From the NCBI GenBank assembly GCA_026988515.1, contig JALSLA010000069.1, positions 3,289-67,288 on the forward strand: a stretch of DNA of 64,000 nt, given 5' to 3'. Positions within the stretch are counted from its first letter, which is position 1; every line of letters starts with the position of its first letter. The DNA is from Helicobacteraceae bacterium. Lineage in GTDB: Bacteria; Campylobacterota; Campylobacteria; Campylobacterales; Sulfurimonadaceae. Both the position numbers and the translations under genes were made by a program. A model generated the notes under the pieces. It worked only from the letters and a program-made list of their open reading frames with translations, was not told the origin of the DNA and ran no database searches. Positions 15,568 to 23,576 of this stretch are shown piece after piece.

Positions 15568-16464
15568 ATGACTCTTTTATTGGCACTAAGTTCTGCACTA
15601 TTGTTTGGTATTGCCATAGGACTCTATATACATGTAAAACGAATCAAACAAGAAAACCATACACTGACAACAAAAATAGCACAACTCGAAGAAAGAGATC
15701 AGGATTGTAATATTCAAGATGAAGAACTTTTCTATCAGTCACGATTGGCACAGATGGGAGAGATGATCAGTATGATTGCACATCAATGGCGTCAACCGCT
15801 GAGCGCCATATCGTTAACGGCTATAGGGTTGGAAACAAAAATACGCTTAAAAAAGTTTGATTTTTCAACTCCTGAACATATTCAAGAAGCGGAACAGTAC
15901 ATTTTAGGACGTACTGAGTTAATAGCGCAATATGTCAGCTCTATGACAACTACGATTGATGACTTTCGGATGTTTTATAAAAAAGATCGCCAAAAAGAGT
16001 TGGTTGCCATTGAAGATATTTTGGATCGAGCACTTAAAATTATCGGGGTTACTTTAGAGGCCCAAAACATCGAAATTCAGATGATATGCAACGCTCACCG
16101 TAACGTGTGGCTGTTTCCCAATGAATTGGTTCAGGTATTTTTAAATCTGTTACAAAATGCTCAAGATCAGTTTGTGACCAAGGGTATTTCACCGGCAAAA
16201 ATCACCATTCGTGCTCACGATACTGACGATGGTATTGAGGTAGCGTTTTGTGATAATGCCGGTGGAATTGACGCTGCAATTATTACAAAAATATTTCGTC
16301 CCTATTTCTCAACGAAAGAGAAACAAAACGGCACGGGATTAGGACTGTATATGAGTCAGATCATTATAGACGAGCACCATAAGGGGCGATTGCGTGCCTG
16401 TAATACCGATAATGGAGACGGTAGCTGCTTTAGTGTTTTTTTACCCACAGGATCTAAAGAGTAG
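15568..16464 (+). CDS. membrane-anchored sensor histidine kinase (HQWRQPL-type)
   Basis: One N-terminal TM, coiled coil, H-box MISMIAHQWRQPLS, N-box LLQNAQDQ, G-boxes CDNAGGID and GTGLGLYMS. Paralog of the 12161 kinase. Confidence 0.8.
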   Translation: MTLLLALSSALLFGIAIGLYIHVKRIKQENHTLTTKIAQLEERDQDCNIQDEELFYQSRLAQMGEMISMIAHQWRQPLSAISLTAIGLETKIRLKKFDFSTPEHIQEAEQYILGRTELIAQYVSSMTTTIDDFRMFYKKDRQKELVAIEDILDRALKIIGVTLEAQNIEIQMICNAHRNVWLFPNELVQVFLNLLQNAQDQFVTKGISPAKITIRAHDTDDGIEVAFCDNAGGIDAAIITKIFRPYFSTKEKQNGTGLGLYMSQIIIDEHHKGRLRACNTDNGDGSCFSVFLPTGSKE

Positions 16465-18528
16465 TTGATGGTTAATATTGACGAACTGTTACTCTATACA
16501 TCAGAATTAACCCTCTTGTATGTTGAAGATGATCCGATGATTCAAGAGCGTAATTGTGAAATCTTTTCGGATTTTTTCCACCAAGTGGATCTTGCTACCA
16601 ATGGCAAAGAAGGGTATGAGCGGTATGAGCACTATTACGAACATACCCATACGTTTTACGACCTGGTTATTACCGATATCCAGATGCCGACAATGGATGG
16701 TATTGCCATGAGTCAGTTAATTCAAAAACGGCATGCCCACCAGATGCTTATTGCGCTCTCTGCACATCAAGATGCCCACTATCTTTTTGAACTTATCAAT
16801 ATGGGAATTACCTACTTTTTACCTAAACCTGCATCTACGGAAGCACTTTACGACATACTCTTTAAAACGTCAAAAATTGTCTATGACCGCAAAGCTGCCG
16901 ATGCGTATTCCAAAAAGTTGATTCTACTCAACAGGAAACTTGAAGACAACGTCATTGAGCTGGAAAATGCCATGCATAAAGCCGAAGAAGCTGCAGCATT
17001 TAAGGATCGTTTTTTTGCCAATATGAGTCATGAAATACGCACGCCCATGAATGCCATACTCGGACTCAGTCATATCCTTCTGGCATCCCCGTTAAAAGAA
17101 AAAGAGCGACAAAATGTTTTAAAAATAGAAAATGCCGCCAATGTATTGCTTCAAATTATTAATAATATTTTAGATTTTTCAAAAATTGAGTCGGGAAAAC
17201 TTACGCTTGAATCAACAGAATTTACGCTGAGCTCGGTGATTGGTTATATTGCAACCATCGTTGATATTAAAGCTGCCCATAAAAATATCTCCATTGTCTA
17301 CAATATCGATCAGCAGATACCAAAATATCTCATTGGTGACCCTACCCGTTTAGGGCAGATACTTCTGAATCTTGTTGACAATGCCGTGAAGTTCACACAT
17401 GAAGGCAGTGTTATTTTACATGTAAATCAACTTGAAAAAGAGCGTGAACGCTGTGTACTGAAATTTGATGTCATTGATCACGGTATTGGCATAGAAGAAG
17501 AAAAAATTGAGACACTTTTTGACTCTTTTGTTCAGGCAGACAGTAGTACTACACGAGAATACGGCGGTTCCGGACTCGGTCTAAGCATCACAAAGTATTT
17601 AGTAGAAATGATGGGCGGAACGATTTCCATATGCAGTCATAAATCTCAAGGGAGTACCTTTAGTGTGGTGCTCCCTTTATCATATACCGACAAAAGCCAC
17701 CGGTCATCACATCACCCTGCCCGCAGCAATGCGGATATCTCCGGCATTGTACTGCAGGACAAAACAGTCTTGCTGGTAGAAGATAATGAGGTCAATCGCC
17801 ATGTCATTTTAGGATTACTGGAGCGAAGCGGGGCAAAAATTCTTATTGCGACCGACGGTGCCGAAGCGTTAGAGATAGCAGAAACAGAAAAAACGGATTT
17901 AATATTAATGGATATTAATATACCGATTATGGATGGCTATGAAGTGACTCGAGCCATTCGAAAGAACCTCAATACGGTGCCAATCATAGGTTTAAGTGCC
18001 AACACCATGCGTAAAGATATGACCAAAGCACTTGATGCGGGAATGAATGCATACCTGTACAAGCCTATGGATATACAACGGTTCTATCGACTCCTTTCAG
18101 AGTATATTGACGGTGCCGTGTTACATTTTAAGCAGGAGAAGGCAACATCTGTGTCTGTTATTGCCAACCACCCGTTCTGCACAATTTCCGGATTGGATGT
18201 TGCCGATGCTCTGGAGCGTATGGAGTATAATGTAGTACTTTATGAGCGTGTTGTACACTCCTTTTTTACAATGTTTGCCAATGCTGCCGAAACGCTACAG
18301 GAGTATATTGTTCATGAAAAATATGATGAAGCGTATCGACTTTGTCATGATATTCAGGGAAGTAGTGGTAATATTGGTGCAAAAGAACTCTATGCGGTTA
18401 CTAAAAATATGGAACAGATGCTTACATTGCATCAGCGAGATACGGCACTGCAACAGGTGCAGCGTTTTTCTCAAGCATTTGAGGAGCTTGCCCGCTTGGT
18501 TTCAGATACACTGAAGAAAGATGACTAA
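16465..18528 (+). CDS. hybrid histidine kinase: REC - HisKA - HATPase_c - REC - HPt
   Basis: N-terminal receiver (YVEDD...VITDIQMPTMDG...LPKP), H-box FFANMSHEIRTPMN, HATPase (NLVDNAVKFT, DHGIGI, GGSGLGLSI), second receiver (LVEDNEVN...ILMDINIPIMDG...YLYKP), HPt (CHDIQGSSGNIGA). The start could be the ATG at 16468. Confidence 0.9.
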   Translation: MMVNIDELLLYTSELTLLYVEDDPMIQERNCEIFSDFFHQVDLATNGKEGYERYEHYYEHTHTFYDLVITDIQMPTMDGIAMSQLIQKRHAHQMLIALSAHQDAHYLFELINMGITYFLPKPASTEALYDILFKTSKIVYDRKAADAYSKKLILLNRKLEDNVIELENAMHKAEEAAAFKDRFFANMSHEIRTPMNAILGLSHILLASPLKEKERQNVLKIENAANVLLQIINNILDFSKIESGKLTLESTEFTLSSVIGYIATIVDIKAAHKNISIVYNIDQQIPKYLIGDPTRLGQILLNLVDNAVKFTHEGSVILHVNQLEKERERCVLKFDVIDHGIGIEEEKIETLFDSFVQADSSTTREYGGSGLGLSITKYLVEMMGGTISICSHKSQGSTFSVVLPLSYTDKSHRSSHHPARSNADISGIVLQDKTVLLVEDNEVNRHVILGLLERSGAKILIATDGAEALEIAETEKTDLILMDINIPIMDGYEVTRAIRKNLNTVPIIGLSANTMRKDMTKALDAGMNAYLYKPMDIQRFYRLLSEYIDGAVLHFKQEKATSVSVIANHPFCTISGLDVADALERMEYNVVLYERVVHSFFTMFANAAETLQEYIVHEKYDEAYRLCHDIQGSSGNIGAKELYAVTKNMEQMLTLHQRDTALQQVQRFSQAFEELARLVSDTLKKDD

Positions 18529-18901
18529 AAGGTATTTAATGAAAAAAACAATAATTATTGCAGAAGACAACGAGCTTAATATTACTATTTTAGACGGTAT
18601 TTTAAAGGAGACGTACGACTTGATTATTGCGCGGAGTGCTGAAGAGGTCTATCAAATACTGCAAACGGAGACACCGGATCTTTTTTTACTCGATATTGTG
18701 ATGAGTAAAATTAGCGGTATCGATCTGTGCAAAACATTGCGAAGTGACACCAGGTTTGAAAATACTCCTGTTGTATTCATGACGGCAGTGCAAGATAAAA
18801 AAATCTATGACTCCGCTTTTCAAGTGGGTGCAAGTGCCTTTATTGCCAAACCTTTTAAGTCTTCCGATTTAAAAGATACCCTGTCAAAACTGTTAGCATA
18901 A
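18521..18901 (+). CDS. single-domain (CheY-like) response regulator
   Basis: IIIAEDNELN...LFLLDIVMSKISG...MTAV...AKP receiver motifs. The alternative start MKKTIII at 18539 is more likely. Confidence 0.8.
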   Translation: MTKRYLMKKTIIIAEDNELNITILDGILKETYDLIIARSAEEVYQILQTETPDLFLLDIVMSKISGIDLCKTLRSDTRFENTPVVFMTAVQDKKIYDSAFQVGASAFIAKPFKSSDLKDTLSKLLA

Positions 18902-18924: not shown

Positions 18925-19437
18925 CTACCAAATGGTGCGCTTGGTAATACGCGTGAAGAGCTCCTCAACATTTTTATCTTCTTTGGCAGAGGTGTAAACA
19001 ATGCCGACACAGTTGCTGTATTTTTGTTGAAAAGCAGCTTCGTCAAGTGTCACGGTACTGCCCAGATCACTTTTGTTGATGGCAATAATAAAAGGAATGG
19101 CAACATCAAAATTATGAATGTACTCAAGATGCTGTTGTAAATTTTCTGCCGTCTGTGGGCGGGTGGCATCAATGACTACAATAAAAGCATTGCATCCTTT
19201 GGCATAATGCAACGGTACGTTTTGGTTTTTATTGGCACCCTCCACATCCCATAACATTAGGGCTACGGCAGCAACATTGCCCTGATCGTTCAATATAAGA
19301 TTTTTTTTCATAATATTAACGCCGATCGTGCTTAAATAGGCATCGCTGAACTTATTCTCAACATAGCGTGTTGCCAAACTTGTTTTTCCAACGCCGTGAT
19401 TGCCGATGAGAAGAATTTTTTTTATATATTTTTTCAT
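18925..19437 (-). CDS. Ras/Rab-like small GTPase (170 aa)
   Basis: G1 GNHGVGKTS, switch I YLSTIGV, G3 WDVEG, G4 NKSD, G5 TSAK. I prefer the start MKKYIKK at 19437, which lies 1 nt after the upstream stop. Confidence 0.8.
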   Translation of the reverse strand: MKKYIKKILLIGNHGVGKTSLATRYVENKFSDAYLSTIGVNIMKKNLILNDQGNVAAVALMLWDVEGANKNQNVPLHYAKGCNAFIVVIDATRPQTAENLQQHLEYIHNFDVAIPFIIAINKSDLGSTVTLDEAAFQQKYSNCVGIVYTSAKEDKNVEELFTRITKRTIW

Positions 19438-19438
19438 G

Positions 19439-21217
19439 TTATTCACTTTCTTGTACTGTATTATACCAATAAAATTTAACGCATTGTGATGCTGAATTGT
19501 TATTTTCATGAAACAGTGGCGGTTGTGCCATCCATCGGGTGGTAATACGTTGCGGAGAAACGCCTAAAGCAATGAGTGCATCGGTTACGTTTTGCGCCCT
19601 TTTTTTGGCAATGCGTCTGTTTTGTAACAGATTTTTAGATGGACTCGAATAGCCAATAACACCAAGATGCGTTTGCGGATATTGTTCGAGGTGTGCGGCA
19701 ATGCGTTCAAGCAGTGGTGCATGCTCTTTGTCTATAGCAGATGCCCCGTTTTTAAAATAGAGGCTGTGCTGACGGCTTTTGGTGTATGCAACATTAATAT
19801 AGAGATGTTTAATGGCATCAAGTTCTGTAATAATGTCGGCAGCTTGTTGCAGTCGTTGCGGTGATGTAGCCTCTCCTGTAATGGTAACTGTACCATTGGT
19901 CACATCATACGTGAGATTTGTATAGGGGTCACTATTGAGTACGGCAATTTGCTTGGCAATAAGACGCTTGCTTTTTGCATAATCTTCAAGGGGTTTGAGC
20001 ACTAACACCCTGTTGTCAATGTCATAGGGAAATTTTTTTGTCATGAGCGTATTAAAAAGTTCATCGTTGAGTTTTGCATTCGGAACTTTTCCCTCAATGA
20101 CTAACGTATTGTCCTGCCATGAGGTGCTAATAGCATAAAGTGCTAAATGCGGATTGTTTTGAATGCGCGTTGCGATCATTGCTTGAAAGTGCTCTTTTTT
20201 ATAGTGTGTGTAATAGGACCATGCACCCAAAGTGAGCAACAAGAAAGCAATAATAGCTAAAGGCCATTTGCTGGGAGGCTGATCTTTGGCGGGTTTATGC
20301 TGATTCAATGCAAATAAGGGCGTAAACAACGTTTCAATGTCGTGTGTAGGTATTGATGAGAGATCGCCGTCAAACTCTTGAATGTCAGTAGCATAATGAT
20401 CTAAAATAGCTGTGAGAACCTCATTGGTCGCTGTTACAACGTCTTGTGTGGTTTGTCCGTCGAGAAGAACGGCCAAATAAGAGTGCCCTGAAGATTCCAG
20501 ATAGATTTTAGATTCACCGTAGTTAATCTCATTGACATCACGAAACTGCTCTTGCTGATGAATCCAGTTGTTAATGAAATCTGTCAGTGCCGTTAACATG
20601 GAACCGACCATTTCGGGTTCATTAATGTGATTGCCTTTATCGACGCGATGCGCAATAATGGCTCCCATCGGCTTATGAATAAGCAGAACTGCTTTTACAT
20701 GTACGGGTAAGGACTCATAAAGCAATAGTTCCGCCTCATCAATTCCTTGTACTTTTGCCTGTATTTTTCGTTTAATATTTTGAATGCTTAAGCCGTGTTG
20801 TATTTTTGCATTAATATCATTCATCATATCTTGTAGCATTTGAGAAACATATTTGGAGATCATGCCGCCGACTACCGGATACAAAAGATCGGAAACATCC
20901 TCTTTGTGGGTGATTGTATAGTTGTGCAACTCTCGGTAAATGAGTGGGGATATTTTTTTAATGACCGGCTCATACGATGCTTTGGAACCATGTTCTACCA
21001 AAGTATTCAGGGCACAAACTACGGCATGTTCAAACGCTGCATGTTCTTGTGTTGATGCGTCAACAAGCATCTTGGAGAAATGCGGTGCAATATGTTCAAT
21101 AAGCCTCTCGGGATACTCCAAACGCTCTTGAAGCTGTTGAAGTTCTGCTTCTATATGTGCTACCGATCGGAGTTCATCTCCTAAAAGTAACTGCCTGAGC
21201 CGTTCAAGTTCACTCAT
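19439..21217 (-). CDS. multidomain envelope protein: cytoplasmic N-terminal region, one TM helix, two BON-like segments, C-terminal OmpA/MotB-like peptidoglycan-binding domain
   Basis: TM WPLAIIAFLLLTLGAWSYY. BON-like LVIEGKVPNAKLNDELF and VTITGEATSPQRLQQAADIITELDAIKHLYINV. OmpA-like LYFKNGASAIDKEH...GVIGYSSPSKNLLQNRRIAKKRAQNVTDALIALGVSPQRI. Confidence 0.75.
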   Translation of the reverse strand: MSELERLRQLLLGDELRSVAHIEAELQQLQERLEYPERLIEHIAPHFSKMLVDASTQEHAAFEHAVVCALNTLVEHGSKASYEPVIKKISPLIYRELHNYTITHKEDVSDLLYPVVGGMISKYVSQMLQDMMNDINAKIQHGLSIQNIKRKIQAKVQGIDEAELLLYESLPVHVKAVLLIHKPMGAIIAHRVDKGNHINEPEMVGSMLTALTDFINNWIHQQEQFRDVNEINYGESKIYLESSGHSYLAVLLDGQTTQDVVTATNEVLTAILDHYATDIQEFDGDLSSIPTHDIETLFTPLFALNQHKPAKDQPPSKWPLAIIAFLLLTLGAWSYYTHYKKEHFQAMIATRIQNNPHLALYAISTSWQDNTLVIEGKVPNAKLNDELFNTLMTKKFPYDIDNRVLVLKPLEDYAKSKRLIAKQIAVLNSDPYTNLTYDVTNGTVTITGEATSPQRLQQAADIITELDAIKHLYINVAYTKSRQHSLYFKNGASAIDKEHAPLLERIAAHLEQYPQTHLGVIGYSSPSKNLLQNRRIAKKRAQNVTDALIALGVSPQRITTRWMAQPPLFHENNNSASQCVKFYWYNTVQESE

Positions 21218-21777
21218 TGCTGCGAAGGTGTCTCTTGTATCTCAATGTCCAGGGGCACTCCTTTGAGTTGCAGTGCCGTATTCATCAGCAGTTCACTCAA
21301 CTTCTCTTTAGAGAGATGCTGCTCATTAATATCACTGTGTAATGCATTTAGCTGATCGGTCATCTCCTGATGGAGACGCTCCAAAGTAATTTTAAACGCA
21401 TCCATTTCCCGATGCGAGGCGACTTTTCCGGCTTCAATCGTGTCTTCAATTTCTTGAGAACGCACTTCAATAGCCGTTTGCATACGACGTTCAAGCTTTA
21501 GGGTTTGATCATGAATATCATTAATCTCTTCCTGACGTTGGGTATGAAATTGTTTTAAACGTTTTTGCAAAGCGTTAACATCTTCTTGCATGCGTTGATT
21601 TAACTCTTCTTTAATTAAAATCAGTGATGTCTCAACACTTTCTTGCAAACGATCAAAACGGTTGTTTAAATCATCAATGGCTGCCGTAATGCCGGCAAGT
21701 TGCGAACCAAAAAGGAGTTCACGAATTTGTTCAATATTTCCAAGGCTGTCTAAGCCGTTTTTTTGTGGGTTGTCCAT
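21214..21777 (-). CDS. coiled-coil protein, first gene of the GTPase operon
   Basis: 187 aa, heptad-rich and Glu/Gln/Leu-rich. ATGA overlap with the downstream gene. The N-terminal motif IEQIRELLFGSQL is shared with the downstream protein. Confidence 0.6.
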   Translation of the reverse strand: MDNPQKNGLDSLGNIEQIRELLFGSQLAGITAAIDDLNNRFDRLQESVETSLILIKEELNQRMQEDVNALQKRLKQFHTQRQEEINDIHDQTLKLERRMQTAIEVRSQEIEDTIEAGKVASHREMDAFKITLERLHQEMTDQLNALHSDINEQHLSKEKLSELLMNTALQLKGVPLDIEIQETPSQQ

Positions 21778-21889
21778 GATTGTTAGCCTCTATACACTTA
21801 AATGATGAGAGATTTTATCAAAAAGCATCTTAATATTTTCAGCAAATTTATACTAAAATAGCTATGCAAAACATTTTTGGAGCAGTTAT

Positions 21890-22621
21890 ATGTTTGATCC
21901 CATGGTGCTTTACAGAGAGTCTGCTCACTTAAGTATTCTAATTGTTGAAGATCACCTCTCTTTACGCACACGAATTGTCGAAATTCTTAGTGATCTGTTT
22001 GCTCAAGTTGATGAAGCGCAAAACGGCATTGATGCGCTGGAACAATATAAAGCGTATCGGAAACAACACGGAGTCTACTACGACTTGGTTCTTTCAGATA
22101 TTCAGATGCCGCAAATGAATGGTATTGATTTAACGGCAGAGCTCTATGCGCTGCATGAAGAGCAACCTATTATTATTTTATCGGCACATCAAGATGCCAA
22201 ATACCTTCTTGCGCTTATTAATTTCGGAGTAGCTCAGTTTATTACCAAGCCGATTGAGCAAGATCAAATGCTCGAGACGCTCTACAATGTCTGTAGAAAA
22301 ATCAACAAATCAACAGCAAAACAATCTGAAGACACGATTGTTCTGGGAGACAGGTGTATTTGGGATGCACGTACACAGGTGCTTAAAGTTGACAATGAAG
22401 TCGTTTCTCTAACCAAACATGAAATCTATTTTATGGAGTTGTTTGGCAGGCACCTCGATAAAATTTGCAGTATGGATGATATATTAAACTACTTTTTTCT
22501 TAATAATATAGATATTAGTGCCGAAAATGTACGGAGCTCTATTGCGCGACTTCGTAAAAAACTTCCCAAAAACAGTATTACGAGCGTGTATGGCTTGGGC
22601 TATAAGCTTTCAAGTTATTAA
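21890..22621 (+). CDS. OmpR/PhoB-type response regulator (REC + winged helix)
   Basis: REC: IVEDH...VLSDIQMPQMNG...LSAHQDA...TKP. C-terminal LTKHEIYFMELF...IARLRKKL...YGLGYKL. Confidence 0.85.
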   Translation: MFDPMVLYRESAHLSILIVEDHLSLRTRIVEILSDLFAQVDEAQNGIDALEQYKAYRKQHGVYYDLVLSDIQMPQMNGIDLTAELYALHEEQPIIILSAHQDAKYLLALINFGVAQFITKPIEQDQMLETLYNVCRKINKSTAKQSEDTIVLGDRCIWDARTQVLKVDNEVVSLTKHEIYFMELFGRHLDKICSMDDILNYFFLNNIDISAENVRSSIARLRKKLPKNSITSVYGLGYKLSSY

Positions 22622-23576
22622 CATAGGCTTGAATATTCTTCTGTAGTTCTTGTGAAACCTCTACATCCAAATCCATTAACGAAAGAGGCAGATTAAAGTC
22701 TGCAAGCTTTACGTAATCCTTGTAGGTAACCAGAAGTGATGCTGCGCCGCTCTCATGCAACATCTGCTCAAGCTCCTCTTTTTGAAAATAGTAATGGTCG
22801 GGAAAATAGCGGTGCCCGACAACCCCTTTGGGTAAATACGGCTGTAATCGTTCGGGACGGGCAATGGCGGTAACAAGCAACATGGCGGAAGTCAGGTTTT
22901 TGTAGGTTACGTTACGCTTAAAAGTACGTTCCTCCTGGGCAATATAAGCAGTTTTACCTCGCCAAAGTCGTTCACGAAACGGGCCTGCAGGCAGACAAAA
23001 CGTATTGGGAGTTGCTATGTCAATGAGAATATCATATTTTTTAATATTATGCTTGGAATAGCCATCATCCAAGAAGACAACCTCACAATGCATCTGCTGT
23101 GCCTTTGCGATGGCATCCATACGGTTTTCACTGACAATGACAACAGCTTTGGAAAGTTTTTGGGCATAAATCATCGCTTCGTCCCCGCTCTGTTTGACGT
23201 CACAGTGTATGCCTTGGGAATCTTTCACTACAAGAAGACCGCTGCTGTGTCTGCCGTATCCCCGCAAAATAATGCATGGAGCAGTAAAAGTGGAAGCCAG
23301 AGCAGAGACAAGCGGTGTTTTACCGCTACCGCCTACGGTAAGATTTCCAACGCTAATAATGGGGATACGGCAGTCTGTCTCTTTGGCTGCTTTATAACGT
23401 AACCAAACTGTGAAACAGTAGAGAAGACTGAGCGGGTAGAGGCAATAAGAGAGTAGACGATCTGCAACCGACGGCGCATAAAAGTAACGCTCTACCCACG
23501 ATACAACAGACTTTTTATACTCGATTTTTGTTGACTTCAAGAATGCTGTCACAGATGTATTTAATCTCTTTGTCAC
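22578..23576 (-). CDS. lpxK: tetraacyldisaccharide 4'-kinase
   Basis: VGNLTVGGSGKTP P-loop and LpxK-like N-terminus (W.ERYFY.P...LYPLSLLY). The start is uncertain: in-frame GTG at 23552 or TTG at 23540 would shorten the overlap with the upstream gene. Confidence 0.85.
   Translation of the reverse strand: MTKRLNTSVTAFLKSTKIEYKKSVVSWVERYFYAPSVADRLLSYCLYPLSLLYCFTVWLRYKAAKETDCRIPIISVGNLTVGGSGKTPLVSALASTFTAPCIILRGYGRHSSGLLVVKDSQGIHCDVKQSGDEAMIYAQKLSKAVVIVSENRMDAIAKAQQMHCEVVFLDDGYSKHNIKKYDILIDIATPNTFCLPAGPFRERLWRGKTAYIAQEERTFKRNVTYKNLTSAMLLVTAIARPERLQPYLPKGVVGHRYFPDHYYFQKEELEQMLHESGAASLLVTYKDYVKLADFNLPLSLMDLDVEVSQELQKNIQAYVNNLKAYSPSHTRS

Follow-up and report, generated by a model that had tools for sequence, protein, structure and literature searches.

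A probable Group 1 Rup system in reduced form, with a putative longin/Roadblock-type GTPase platform in its membrane protein

Three tightly coupled minus-strand genes in the window (the whole 64-kb stretch of DNA that was analysed) encode a 187-aa coiled-coil protein (DUFY), a 592-aa membrane protein (DUFX:BON:BON:OmpA, hereafter DUFX) and a 170-aa Rab-like small GTPase, and by pairwise homology and synteny they very probably constitute a Group 1 Rup system. A GTPase switch that spans the membrane and feeds two-component signalling is their likeliest function, of which we infer the interactions, the direction of the signal and the output. Identity and mechanism taken together as the best overall explanation appear rather probable, while the mechanism in the form proposed below stands at about an even chance. 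The new element is DUFX, which seems, judging from predicted models, to contain a hidden longin/Roadblock-type GTPase-docking domain.

Identity and conservation of the locus

By computational analysis, Wuichet and Søgaard-Andersen (2014, PMC4316618) described a DUFY > DUFX:OmpA > Rup neighbourhood, termed "Group 1 Rup"; the roughly 35 genomes for which they list it include that of the epsilonproteobacterium Sulfurovum NBC37-1. The neighbourhood comprises a coiled-coil protein, a protein with an unknown domain, a TM segment and OmpA, the Rup GTPase and a fourth signalling gene (PMC4316618, Table S2). In that account, Rup is defined as a clade not coupled to MglB homologues, DUFX is a domain of unknown function, and the Gln missing from the GTPase is proposed to be provided in trans (PMC4316618). 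The sequence-only reading of this DNA had known of no characterised module with such an envelope-anchored architecture, yet the exact neighbourhood stands in the very paper that it cited, so the interest it claimed for novelty was overstated. No follow-up paper or experiment on any Group 1 Rup member was found in the literature searched.

All three proteins are homologous to those of the Sulfurovum NBC37-1 locus (L082), in which a GGDEF gene follows the GTPase: the GTPase matches at E = 2e-35 with 38% identity, DUFY at E = 1e-10, and DUFX at E = 3e-43 against P0081, the DUFX:OmpA protein of this published Group 1 locus. The window has the DUFY > DUFX > Rup order, with a TM helix and OmpA in DUFX as is often the case, and its GTPase lacks the G3 Gln (WDVEGA against WDTAGQ in Sec4). 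ORF coordinates place the start and stop of DUFY and DUFX in an ATGA overlap at 21214-21217, and the sequence itself gives a 1-nt gap between DUFX and the GTPase at 19438 ('...gaa agt gaa TAA c ATG aaa aaa'), both in agreement with the coupling described earlier. Of 80 related loci, drawn from Campylobacterota and filamentous cyanobacteria, 68 have homologues of the three genes in the same order and strand, and 10 of the 12 others are cut by contig ends. Given this conservation across phyla, the absence of which had been named as grounds for refutation, the arrangement is not a product of chance.

The Rup GTPase

The Group 1 Rup GTPase gene occupies 18925..19437 (minus strand) and begins 1 nt past the DUFX stop. 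A longer version of 194 aa from a start at 19509 finds no support in the N-termini of homologues or in a genome 98% identical, which has a 170-aa gene call. The protein matches Pfam Ras over residues 7-167, equal to model positions 1-159 of 162 (E = 4.4e-28, 98.3 bits, cut-off 21.6), as well as Roc (4.8e-25) and TIGR00231 (63.1 bits, cut-off 42.5), and as a single, full-length G domain above the curated cut-offs of PF00071 and TIGR00231 it falls within the Ras superfamily. The motifs of that superfamily (G1 GxxxxGK[ST], switch I Thr, G3 DxxG, G4 NKxD and G5 SAK) are all found, as GNHGVGKTS, YLSTIGV, WDVEG, NKSD and TSAK. The nearest solved structures are Sec4, Rab35, Rab7 and Rab1, at E of about 1e-21 and with Rab7/Ypt7 among the best; the Ras match and these Rab-like structures bear out the eukaryote-like (Ras/Rab) character first read from the motifs. 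In the alignment to Sec4, 'wdveGAn' lies beneath 'wdtaGQe', so that Ala occupies the position of the catalytic Gln (Ras Gln61), as had been proposed, and His stands at the position of Ras Gly12. Across the family, G3 reads WDxEG and is followed by A, T, S, H, K, R or, in one sequence, Q, while the residue equivalent to Gly12 is F or H.

A housekeeping TRAFAC GTPase that adjoins an OmpA-family gene by accident might be suggested by weak partial matches to models of Era, Der and HflX (E about 1e-6). However, these matches span only the G4-G5 half, at about 27 bits against cut-offs of 217-307, and with Obg included the housekeeping models match no better than partially and at E = 2.6e-6, all far below their cut-offs. 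The profiles, named beforehand as a possible refutation of the Ras-like assignment, thus speak against a housekeeping family, and this reading is refuted by the Ras match (4e-28) and the cross-phyla synteny, its probability being close to nil.

DUFY and the question of a defence system

DUFY, the first gene of the operon (ORF at 21214..21777, minus strand), encodes a cytoplasmic coiled-coil protein, and no family was matched in its Pfam scan. An N-terminal motif, LGNIEQIRELLFGSQ, and a C-terminal motif, LSKEKLSELLMNTALQLKG, are conserved in at least 85% of the sequences, and DUFY homologues lie upstream of DUFX in 68 of the 80 loci.

A coiled-coil tail, a MotB-like anchor and an NTPase switch might also compose an anti-phage or other conflict system, for example a Zorya-like one, and the coiled-coil protein does weakly match ZorA tails and DruG in PADLOC (E 1e-4 to 1e-2). 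These matches are confined to coiled-coil regions, and neither the GTPase nor DUFX matched the PADLOC defence families better than E = 1e-3. The operon has no MotA/ExbB (ZorA-type) channel domain, no defence-family profile match beyond those coiled-coil ones (E >= 1e-4), and no nuclease or other effector. Its surroundings are housekeeping genes of even GC content, and the proteins of one taxonomic lineage are usually monophyletic, from which vertical inheritance was inferred (PMC4316618). All of this makes a defence role very improbable.

The fourth gene and the adjacent two-component genes

In the published account, the fourth gene of Group 1 encodes a GGDEF/EAL protein or a histidine kinase whose N-terminal region carries invariant Gln (PMC4316618). 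An HMM of this N-terminal domain finds the gene in 68 of the 80 related loci, in the architectures N-domain + PAS + GGDEF or N-domain (with or without PAS) + HisKA + HATPase, and the domain has D46, R48, PELxGxE, Q122, Q126 and N129 as conserved positions. The same HMM has no match in six frames of the 64-kb window (E <= 0.01), nor in the related loci L001-L003. The window carries the core three genes and is a reduced variant of the four-gene Group 1 Rup system.

Two-component genes stand on both sides of the operon instead. An OmpR-type response regulator (REC + Trans_reg_C in Pfam; 21890..22621, plus strand) diverges from the operon across an intergenic region of 112 bp and is its probable associated regulator; orthologs lie directly upstream and divergent in L001-L005, and occur together with a kinase in L008, L012, L024 and L049. 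Converging on the operon from the other side, at 15568..18901 (plus strand), Pfam identifies three genes: a TM-anchored histidine kinase (15568-16464), a hybrid kinase of REC-HisKA-HATPase-REC-Hpt architecture (16465-18528) and a single-domain REC (18521-18901). Kinase, hybrid kinase and REC also flank the operon in L001, L002 and L081, whereas L003 has kinase, hybrid kinase and divergent response regulator all on the upstream side of the operon, with no single-domain REC detected, so the linkage has been kept through a rearrangement. The convergent genes are candidate signalling partners in the window's clade, a role proposed from conserved linkage only. No two-component genes lie upstream of the operon in L006 and L007, and, with such genes so frequent in these genomes, some of the linkage could be coincidence.

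Architecture of DUFX

DUFX (19439..21217, minus strand) is predicted to be a bitopic inner-membrane protein of 592 aa with a cytoplasmic N-terminus; its N-terminal region has no Pfam match and no signal-peptide-like start. Residues 1-139 (20801..21217) form a helical cytoplasmic region, with long helices in the AlphaFold model and pLDDT <50 at residues 112-143, and this region holds the most conserved stretch of the family, with invariant columns at D110, Y113, P114, G117 and N136. Residues 140-305 (20303..20800) form an alpha/beta domain that is treated below. A probable single TM helix at residues about 319-338, WPLAIIAFLLLTLGAWSYY (20204..20263), corresponds to the single hydrophobic peak, the Kyte-Doolittle 19-residue mean of which is 1.5, slightly below the usual 1.6, and it sits between cytoplasm-type and periplasm-type domains. 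Two periplasmic BON-like repeats follow (residues 362-409 and 425-481; 19775..20134). BON (PF04972) scores above the gathering threshold at residues 425-473 (E = 8.5e-7, 29.6 bits, cut-off 27), and the other copy, 362-409, matches 434-481 as an internal repeat in hhalign (probability 95%, E = 4e-8). An OmpA-like domain of the peptidoglycan-binding type closes the protein (PF00691 above the gathering score at residues 487-574, 19496..19759; E = 4e-12, 46.7 bits, cut-off 27.2). Pfam, hydrophobicity and hhalign thereby sustain the earlier proposal of a cytoplasmic region, one TM helix, two BON-like segments and an OmpA-like domain.

In the structures of A. baumannii OmpA and Pal, the diaminopimelate of peptidoglycan is held by a conserved Asp and a conserved Arg. 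Judged against the motif G-x-[ST]-D-x-x-G...N-x-x-L-[SA]-x-x-R-A, the OmpA-like domain of DUFX keeps the Arg (Arg540). The window and relatives at least 38% identical have another residue where the canonical Asp should stand (GYSSPSK), while more distant family members retain the Asp. Cell-wall coupling through DUFX would be less secure in the window's clade, because the canonical Asp is absent.

This periplasmic part also admits an inside-out form of envelope control, in which the nucleotide state of Rup alters the grip of DUFX on the wall or outer membrane, and DUFX acts as a tether or remodelling factor and not as a sensor. The BON-BON-OmpA order resembles that of envelope-stabilising proteins, and the core three genes are conserved also in loci without the signalling fourth gene, such as those of the window's clade. 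Moreover, DUFX occurs without OmpA in Bacteroidetes and Chloroflexi (PMC4316618 Table S2), and the periplasmic part would therefore be an exchangeable, effector-like module. The near-universal kinase/GGDEF partner (68 of 80 loci) nevertheless speaks for a signalling output, and the OmpA-like domain of the window's clade lacks its key Asp; such inside-out control is considered unlikely.

A longin/Roadblock-like domain in DUFX

The AlphaFold model of residues 140-305 (pLDDT 81.8, pTM 0.74) has the secondary structure order a-a-b-b-a-b-b-b-a and carries the invariant residues R150 and K151. Searched against the PDB with Foldseek, it returned members of the longin/Roadblock superfamily as all 50 of the 50 best matches listed (E 4e-5 to 4e-3), among them AP sigma subunits, Mon1-Ccz1, Sec22b/VAMP7, MglB and LAMTOR, and a 316-residue DUFX model gave an agreeing outcome. 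The best-fitting matches (9ddt_B, 6owt_S, 6owo_S, 9c58_M, 1ifq and 2nut_C) reach TM-scores of 0.50-0.70 with an rmsd of 3.3-4.2 Å, and others score lower, for example Mon1-Ccz1 with a TM-score of 0.43. When superposed on solved members, the predicted domain shows the alpha/beta sandwich of the superfamily, a five-stranded antiparallel sheet with flanking helices, in a model that fits longin and Roadblock topology alike. What had been a guess at a Roadblock/longin fold is now backed by two AlphaFold models.

The likeness appears in predicted models with modest Foldseek E values (1e-5 to 1e-3), and not in sequence profiles. Robl_LC7 (PF03259) is outside the 25 Pfam families matched by most of the 68 DUFX members (E <= 10), the cytoplasmic region of the window's DUFX (member 1) has no Pfam match whatever, and a PDB profile search with DUFX returned no Roadblock protein.

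The presence of MglB structures among the fold matches raises a switch of the MglA/MglB kind. Rup and its Roadblock-like partner would then mark a cell pole or motility machinery, with the OmpA-like domain as a stator-type wall anchor (compare MotB and AglS) and DUFY as a polar scaffold. Many host lineages glide, namely filamentous cyanobacteria as well as Flavobacteria, Chloroflexus and Sorangium, the last three being listed as hosts in PMC4316618 Table S2. The helical region of DUFX also matches the gliding-motor protein GldL, though weakly and not significantly (E = 0.1). On the other hand, Alteromonas, Marinomonas, Mesorhizobium, Nitrospira and Sulfurovum either swim with flagella or have no known gliding motility. 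These genera host Rup as well (PMC4316618 Table S2), the conserved fourth gene encodes a kinase or diguanylate cyclase and no motor part, the immediate neighbourhood is without motility genes, and the GTPase is Rab-like and not MglA-like. A role in polarity or motility accordingly seems improbable.

Proposed mechanism

In the preferred reading, a transmembrane switch wired to two-component signalling, DUFX would be a bitopic inner-membrane receptor or scaffold whose periplasmic BON-BON-OmpA-like part either monitors the cell wall or envelope or binds to it. Longin/Roadblock-type domains usually dimerise, and that of DUFX probably does so too. Together with the conserved helical region and DUFY, it would form a docking platform for Rup and, acting as GAP, GEF or anchor, set its nucleotide state. 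Rup alone would not hydrolyse GTP efficiently, because Ala takes the place of Gln61 and a bulky His that of Gly12, and a partner would therefore have to provide catalytic residues. In most lineages, GTP-bound Rup would control the kinase or diguanylate cyclase encoded immediately downstream, a protein whose dedicated N-terminal domain has nearly invariant Gln residues. In the window's clade, where the fourth gene is missing, the output would more probably run through the neighbouring set of kinase, hybrid kinase, REC and OmpR-type regulator; alternatively, these two-component genes may control transcription of the operon.

That DUFX is a cryptic longin/Roadblock platform which directly binds and regulates the Rab-like Rup is a tentative, model-based proposal, to which we give somewhat less than an even chance. 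If true, Rup, defined in 2014 as not coupled to MglB/Roadblock, would be one more GTPase paired with a platform, as are those of MglA, the conservon, Rag-Ragulator and Rab-Mon1/Ccz1, and a membrane-anchored pair of Rab-like and longin-like proteins would exist in thousands of bacterial lineages, wired to kinases and c-di-GMP enzymes. In the window's clade, where the proposed trans-Gln donor is missing, DUFX (through the invariant R150/K151) or a conserved Gln/Arg motif in the DUFY N-terminus would then have to lend the catalytic help.

Comparison with known systems

The closest known system is the published Group 1 Rup system (PMC4316618), which has the same three proteins in the same order and strand, a GTPase without the G3 Gln, and DUFX followed by a TM helix and OmpA. 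The window and its closest relatives differ in having unrelated two-component genes nearby in place of a fourth gene, the OmpA-like domain of the window lacks the canonical Asp, and DUFX, in contrast to the 2014 account, is modelled here as a longin/Roadblock fold.

MglA-MglB of Myxococcus and Thermus, a Ras-like GTPase with a Roadblock-fold GAP, likewise places a small GTPase gene beside the gene for a Roadblock-type alpha/beta platform, and the MglB structures matched by DUFX are 3t12, 3t1r, 1j3w, 6hjm and 6izw. MglA has its own catalytic Gln and Arg, whereas the window GTPase is Rab-like, not MglA-like, and without the Gln. MglB is a free protein of about 130-160 aa, whereas the platform here would lie inside a membrane protein of 592 aa. 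The top Pfam families of the 68 DUFX proteins do not include Robl_LC7.

The actinobacterial conservon (CvnA kinase, CvnB Roadblock, CvnC DUF742, CvnD GTPase) similarly brings a histidine kinase together with a Roadblock-type protein and a small GTPase in a membrane-associated signalling complex, an analogy already drawn for the Rup system by the 2014 authors (PMC4316618). The present locus is nevertheless not a conservon: its GTPase is Rup and not MglA Group 2, its kinase is of a different type, its Roadblock-like domain shares one polypeptide with a TM helix and a periplasmic BON/OmpA module, and DUF742 (CvnC) had no Pfam match in the operon or the scanned flanking genes.

The best structural matches to the DUFX domain are eukaryotic longin/Roadblock platforms, namely Mon1-Ccz1 for Rab7, TRAPP, Ragulator-Rag and the AP/COPI small subunits with Arf1 (9ddt_B, 5ldd_B, 6owt_S, 1ifq, 3cue and 6ehr_B/5y39_G), at 6-19% sequence identity and as a fold-level likeness from a predicted model. 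The GTPase that DUFX would partner is Rab-like, with Rab7/Ypt7 among its best matches, but the DUFX domain is bacterial and membrane-anchored.

Operon structure and membership of a published system

Three ORFs on the minus strand make up the operon: DUFY, encoding a 187-aa coiled-coil protein (21214-21777); DUFX, encoding a 592-aa membrane protein (19439-21217); and rup, encoding a 170-aa Rab-like small GTPase (18925-19437). DUFY and DUFX share an ATGA overlap, and the DUFX-rup junction, read directly on the minus strand as '...gaa agt gaa TAA c ATG aaa aaa tat...', leaves a 1-nt gap at 19438, so that the arrangement described in an earlier sequence-only reading is present in full. A longer, 194-aa reading of rup is possible from the sequence, but it is disfavoured by the N-termini of 74 homologues and by a near-identical genome (GCA_054022895.1, 98%), in which the gene is called at 170 aa. 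GC content is even across the operon region, the neighbours are housekeeping genes (LpxK and a DegT-type aminotransferase), and scans for promoters and terminators gave counts not above shuffled expectation. As ORFs, the response-regulator gene at 21890-22621 (plus strand) and the convergent LpxK gene at 22578-23576 (minus strand) have 44 nt in common at the 3' end of each (22578-22621); LpxK is called at 324 aa in the near-identical genome.

This module belongs to a system already known from computational work, and its architecture is not new. Both the Rup family and its Group 1 date from a 2014 study by Wuichet and Søgaard-Andersen (PMC4316618). Table S2 of that study gives about 35 genomes with the arrangement 'DUFY>DUFX:OmpA>Rup', and Bacteroidetes, Chloroflexi, Nitrospirae and Proteobacteria are among the groups it covers. 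The hosts include Nostoc, Anabaena, Alteromonas, Sorangium, Nitrospira, Flavobacteria (without OmpA), Chloroflexus and, among the epsilonproteobacteria, Sulfurovum NBC37-1 (SUN_0835) (PMC4316618). All three window proteins are homologous to those of the Sulfurovum locus (Rup, 2e-35 with 38% identity; DUFY, 1e-10; DUFX, 3e-43), where the GTPase gene is followed by a GGDEF gene. The sequence-only reading had held that no such envelope-anchored module was known, and this was mistaken, since Table S2 lists the arrangement and the Sulfurovum proteins match those of the window. Searches by names, locus tags and domain combinations found no paper on the Rup system later than 2014, and no experimental work on any Group 1 member, in the searchable literature outside subscription-only sources. 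A 2020 paper on conflict systems, retrieved by the same searches, does not concern the Rup system.

Distribution and conservation of the operon

Relatives of DUFX numbered 23 in a word-indexed search and 198 with a profile of the cytoplasmic region. An exhaustive search with the cytoplasmic domain gave 4,800 cluster representatives at E <= 0.001, and 3,106 of them at the stricter threshold of E <= 1e-10. Scanning a single genome from each species gave more than 563 encoding loci, mostly in filamentous cyanobacteria (Microcoleus, Oscillatoria, Coleofasciculus, Arthrospira, Calothrix), the remainder belonging mainly to Sulfurimonas, Aliarcobacter and other Campylobacterota.

Neighbourhood conservation had been put forward as a check on the operon, and the three genes are indeed co-conserved. 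DUFY, DUFX and rup stand in one order and on one strand in 68 of the 80 loci kept, and in 10 of the other 12 the contig ends exactly where the absent gene would be expected; the module is therefore a conserved operon. In Arthrospira platensis PCC 7345 (locus L066, 3249-5276), the DUFX gene lies in two adjacent ORFs with no DUFY detected upstream, and this split may reflect a pseudogene or an assembly frameshift. In one Microcoleus locus (L027, 8712-9986), a 425-aa ORF stands between the rup and kinase genes; with the segment 'KPMNPVHPSHARKLL' in its N-terminal part and a Cys motif of HNH type, it looks like a mobile IscB/HNH-type nuclease. A second Microcoleus locus (L052, 4815-6089) was assigned the same ORF by matching length alone.

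The Rab-like GTPase

Rup matches the Pfam Ras model over its full length (4.4e-28) and the Roc model at 4.8e-25. The Era, Der, HflX and Obg models match the C-terminal half only, far under their cut-offs, and a housekeeping identity is effectively ruled out by these scores together with the Ras and Roc matches. Its nearest solved relatives are the eukaryotic Rabs Sec4, Rab35, Rab7 and Rab1 (E about 1e-21), which bears out the initial description of a eukaryote-like GTPase distinct from the Era/Der/Obg type. In the Sec4 alignment, 'WDVEGAN' of Rup lies under 'WDTAGQE', which places Ala at the position of the catalytic Gln, equivalent to Ras Gln61, as had been proposed. The equivalent of Ras Gly12 is His in the window protein and Phe in most relatives.

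Domain architecture of DUFX and DUFY

The make-up first proposed for DUFX, a cytoplasmic region followed by one TM helix, two BON-like segments and an OmpA-like domain, is upheld by Pfam, hhalign and hydrophobicity. Pfam BON covers residues 425-473 and Pfam OmpA residues 487-574, a second BON-like repeat at 362-409 matches the Pfam BON copy with an hhalign probability of 95%, and the single hydrophobic peak falls at residues about 319-338. The 316 N-terminal residues gave no match in Pfam or NCBIfam.

An AlphaFold model of residues 1-316, built on a 68-sequence alignment, shows helices to about residue 170, followed by a beta-beta-alpha-beta-beta-beta-alpha unit (pLDDT 75-94); residues 140-305 modelled alone reach a pLDDT of 81.8 and a pTM of 0.74. 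For both models, all matches among the best 50 listed by Foldseek against the PDB belong to the longin/Roadblock superfamily. The matches listed include the sigma and mu N-terminal domains of AP-1/2/3, zeta-COP, Mon1-Ccz1 with Ypt7, the longin domains of VAMP7 and Sec22b, TRAPP subunits, CPLANE, LAMTOR/Ragulator, MglB of Thermus and Myxococcus, and one Streptomyces Roadblock protein. E-values range from 4e-5 to 4e-3, and the best-fitting matches have TM-scores of 0.50-0.70 and rmsd of 3.3-4.2 Å; some top-ranked matches fit worse, such as Mon1-Ccz1 (TM 0.43, rmsd about 7.6 Å).

Sequence profiles gave a different picture. Of the 25 Pfam families with matches in the most DUFX members (n=68, E <= 10), none is Robl_LC7; the cytoplasmic region of the window protein has no Pfam match, and a profile search of PDB sequences with DUFX returned neither MglB nor any other Roadblock protein. 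The predicted likeness is thus visible at the fold level only, and the earlier guess of a Roadblock/longin-like partner fold stands for predicted structures but not for profiles. Resting on these structures, residues 140-305 would form a cryptic longin/Roadblock-like domain, for which the models cannot tell longin from Roadblock topology.

The stretch most conserved in the family lies just ahead of this domain, at DUFX residues about 110-136 (window 20810-20890; D110, Y113, P114, G117, MISKYV, N136), and has a pLDDT below 50; it may be an interface that becomes ordered only in complex or at the membrane. A match of the DUFX profile to GldL was not significant (E = 0.1). Seven long DUFX proteins of 1,211-1,617 aa contain only BON and OmpA plus N-terminal extensions without an assigned domain, and offer no Rosetta-stone fusion support. 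Long N-terminal extensions without a Pfam domain, giving totals of 900-1,600 aa, are seen in cyanobacterial DUFX (for example locus L010, 5206-7923, and proteins P0021, P0208 and P0220); those of P0021 and P0022 are rich in Glu, Pro and Ser.

The canonical Asp of OmpA-like domains contacts diaminopimelate. The canonical motif G-x-[ST]-D-x-x-G...R-A is intact in distant DUFX relatives. In the window protein and all relatives above about 38% identity, the Asp position is occupied by Ser or Asn and the Arg is retained. In the window, the domain spans 19496-19759, with GYSSPSK at DUFX residues 522-528 and Ser525 at the Asp position. Peptidoglycan binding is uncertain in the window clade because the canonical Asp is absent, and it may have been lost or altered there.

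DUFY found no family match and is rich in Leu, Glu and Gln. An N-terminal motif, LGN[IV][DE]QIR..FG.Q, with near-invariant Gln and Arg residues, and a C-terminal motif, K.S[RK]D.MAE.L...M.LKG, are kept from Campylobacterota to cyanobacteria, and DUFY, judged by these motifs, is more than a generic coiled coil. A similar helical motif opens DUFY (21680-21740) and DUFX (21160-21214), namely IEQIRELLFGSQL and LERLRQLLLGDEL. The hhalign match between DUFY and the DUFX N-terminus (E = 0.013, probability 3%, 34 columns) is too weak for a claim of paralogy.

The fourth component and two-component genes

In Group 1, the product of the fourth gene is either a histidine kinase or a GGDEF/EAL protein, with an invariant Gln in its N-terminal region (PMC4316618). 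An HMM built from this N-terminal domain, with conserved positions D46, R48, PELxGxE, Y88, D90, Q122, Q126 and N129, has a match immediately downstream of the GTPase in 68 of 80 loci. The domain stands ahead of PAS-HisKA-HATPase in cyanobacteria, directly ahead of HisKA-HATPase in a Helicobacteraceae MAG (L006), and ahead of PAS-GGDEF in Sulfurimonas (L008, L024, L049). None of the six frames of the 64-kb window matches the HMM, and the complete loci most closely related to it (L001-L003) have no match either; the window locus is a reduced variant without the canonical fourth component.

In place of the fourth gene, the window clade retains two-component genes beside the operon. An OmpR-type regulator (21890-22621) is divergent from it across a 112-bp intergenic region (21778-21889), and a TM-anchored kinase of 298 aa (15568-16464), a hybrid kinase (16465-18528) and a single REC protein (18521-18901) are convergent with it. 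The same genes flank the operon in three related loci (L001, L002, L081); in L003 the kinase, hybrid kinase and response regulator all lie upstream, and an upstream kinase-regulator pair also occurs in L008, L012, L024 and L049. Because the linkage survives rearrangement, it suggests a functional tie to the operon, with the qualification that L006 and L007 lack the linkage and that such genes are common. The H-box IAHQWRQP is common to the kinases of the window (15568-16464), L003 (3253-4515) and L006 (5752-6771), and their N-termini differ, being a TM helix, a PAS-type region by eye and the Rup-associated N-domain, respectively. This pattern suggests sensor-domain swapping on one kinase core.

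Proposed mechanism

The reading with the best support follows the 2014 authors and is refined by the predicted DUFX fold. DUFX would be a bitopic membrane protein that uses its periplasmic BON/OmpA part to sense or hold the envelope. Its cytoplasmic longin/Roadblock-like domain, the conserved helical segment and DUFY would dock Rup and set its nucleotide state; Rup-GTP would then act on a kinase or diguanylate cyclase. Rup hydrolysis should depend on a partner, because it has no Gln61 equivalent and carries a bulky residue at the Gly12 position. The 2014 authors noted that the G3 Gln is missing from Rup and proposed its supply in trans (PMC4316618). There are three candidate sources of the catalytic residue: in loci that have the fourth gene, the near-invariant Gln residues in the N-domain of its product; in DUFX, R150 and K151, which are invariant; and in DUFY, the Gln/Arg conserved in its N-terminal motif.

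Rival readings of the same components are a polarity or motility switch and an inside-out control of an envelope tether. A defence system is effectively excluded, as a PADLOC scan gave matches at the coiled-coil level only.

Comparison with known systems

The gene-level interpretation first offered from the sequence was largely correct, and the result for the window is mainly corrective: the module is of a known type in reduced form, and the finding mostly rediscovers published work. Some novelty lies in the predicted cryptic longin/Roadblock fold of DUFX, the lost fourth component and the lost OmpA Asp in this Campylobacterota clade. The Group 1 Rup system is widespread, and few other bacterial systems are organized around a eukaryote-like switch of the Rab/Ras type. 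A longin/Roadblock platform in DUFX, if true, would provide a concrete and testable partner and interface for the Rup GTPase. The fold also bears on classification, as Rup had been defined as a clade "not coupled to MglB homologs" (PMC4316618); if the platform is real, the presumed division of prokaryotic small GTPases into "MglB-coupled" and "uncoupled" types would disappear.
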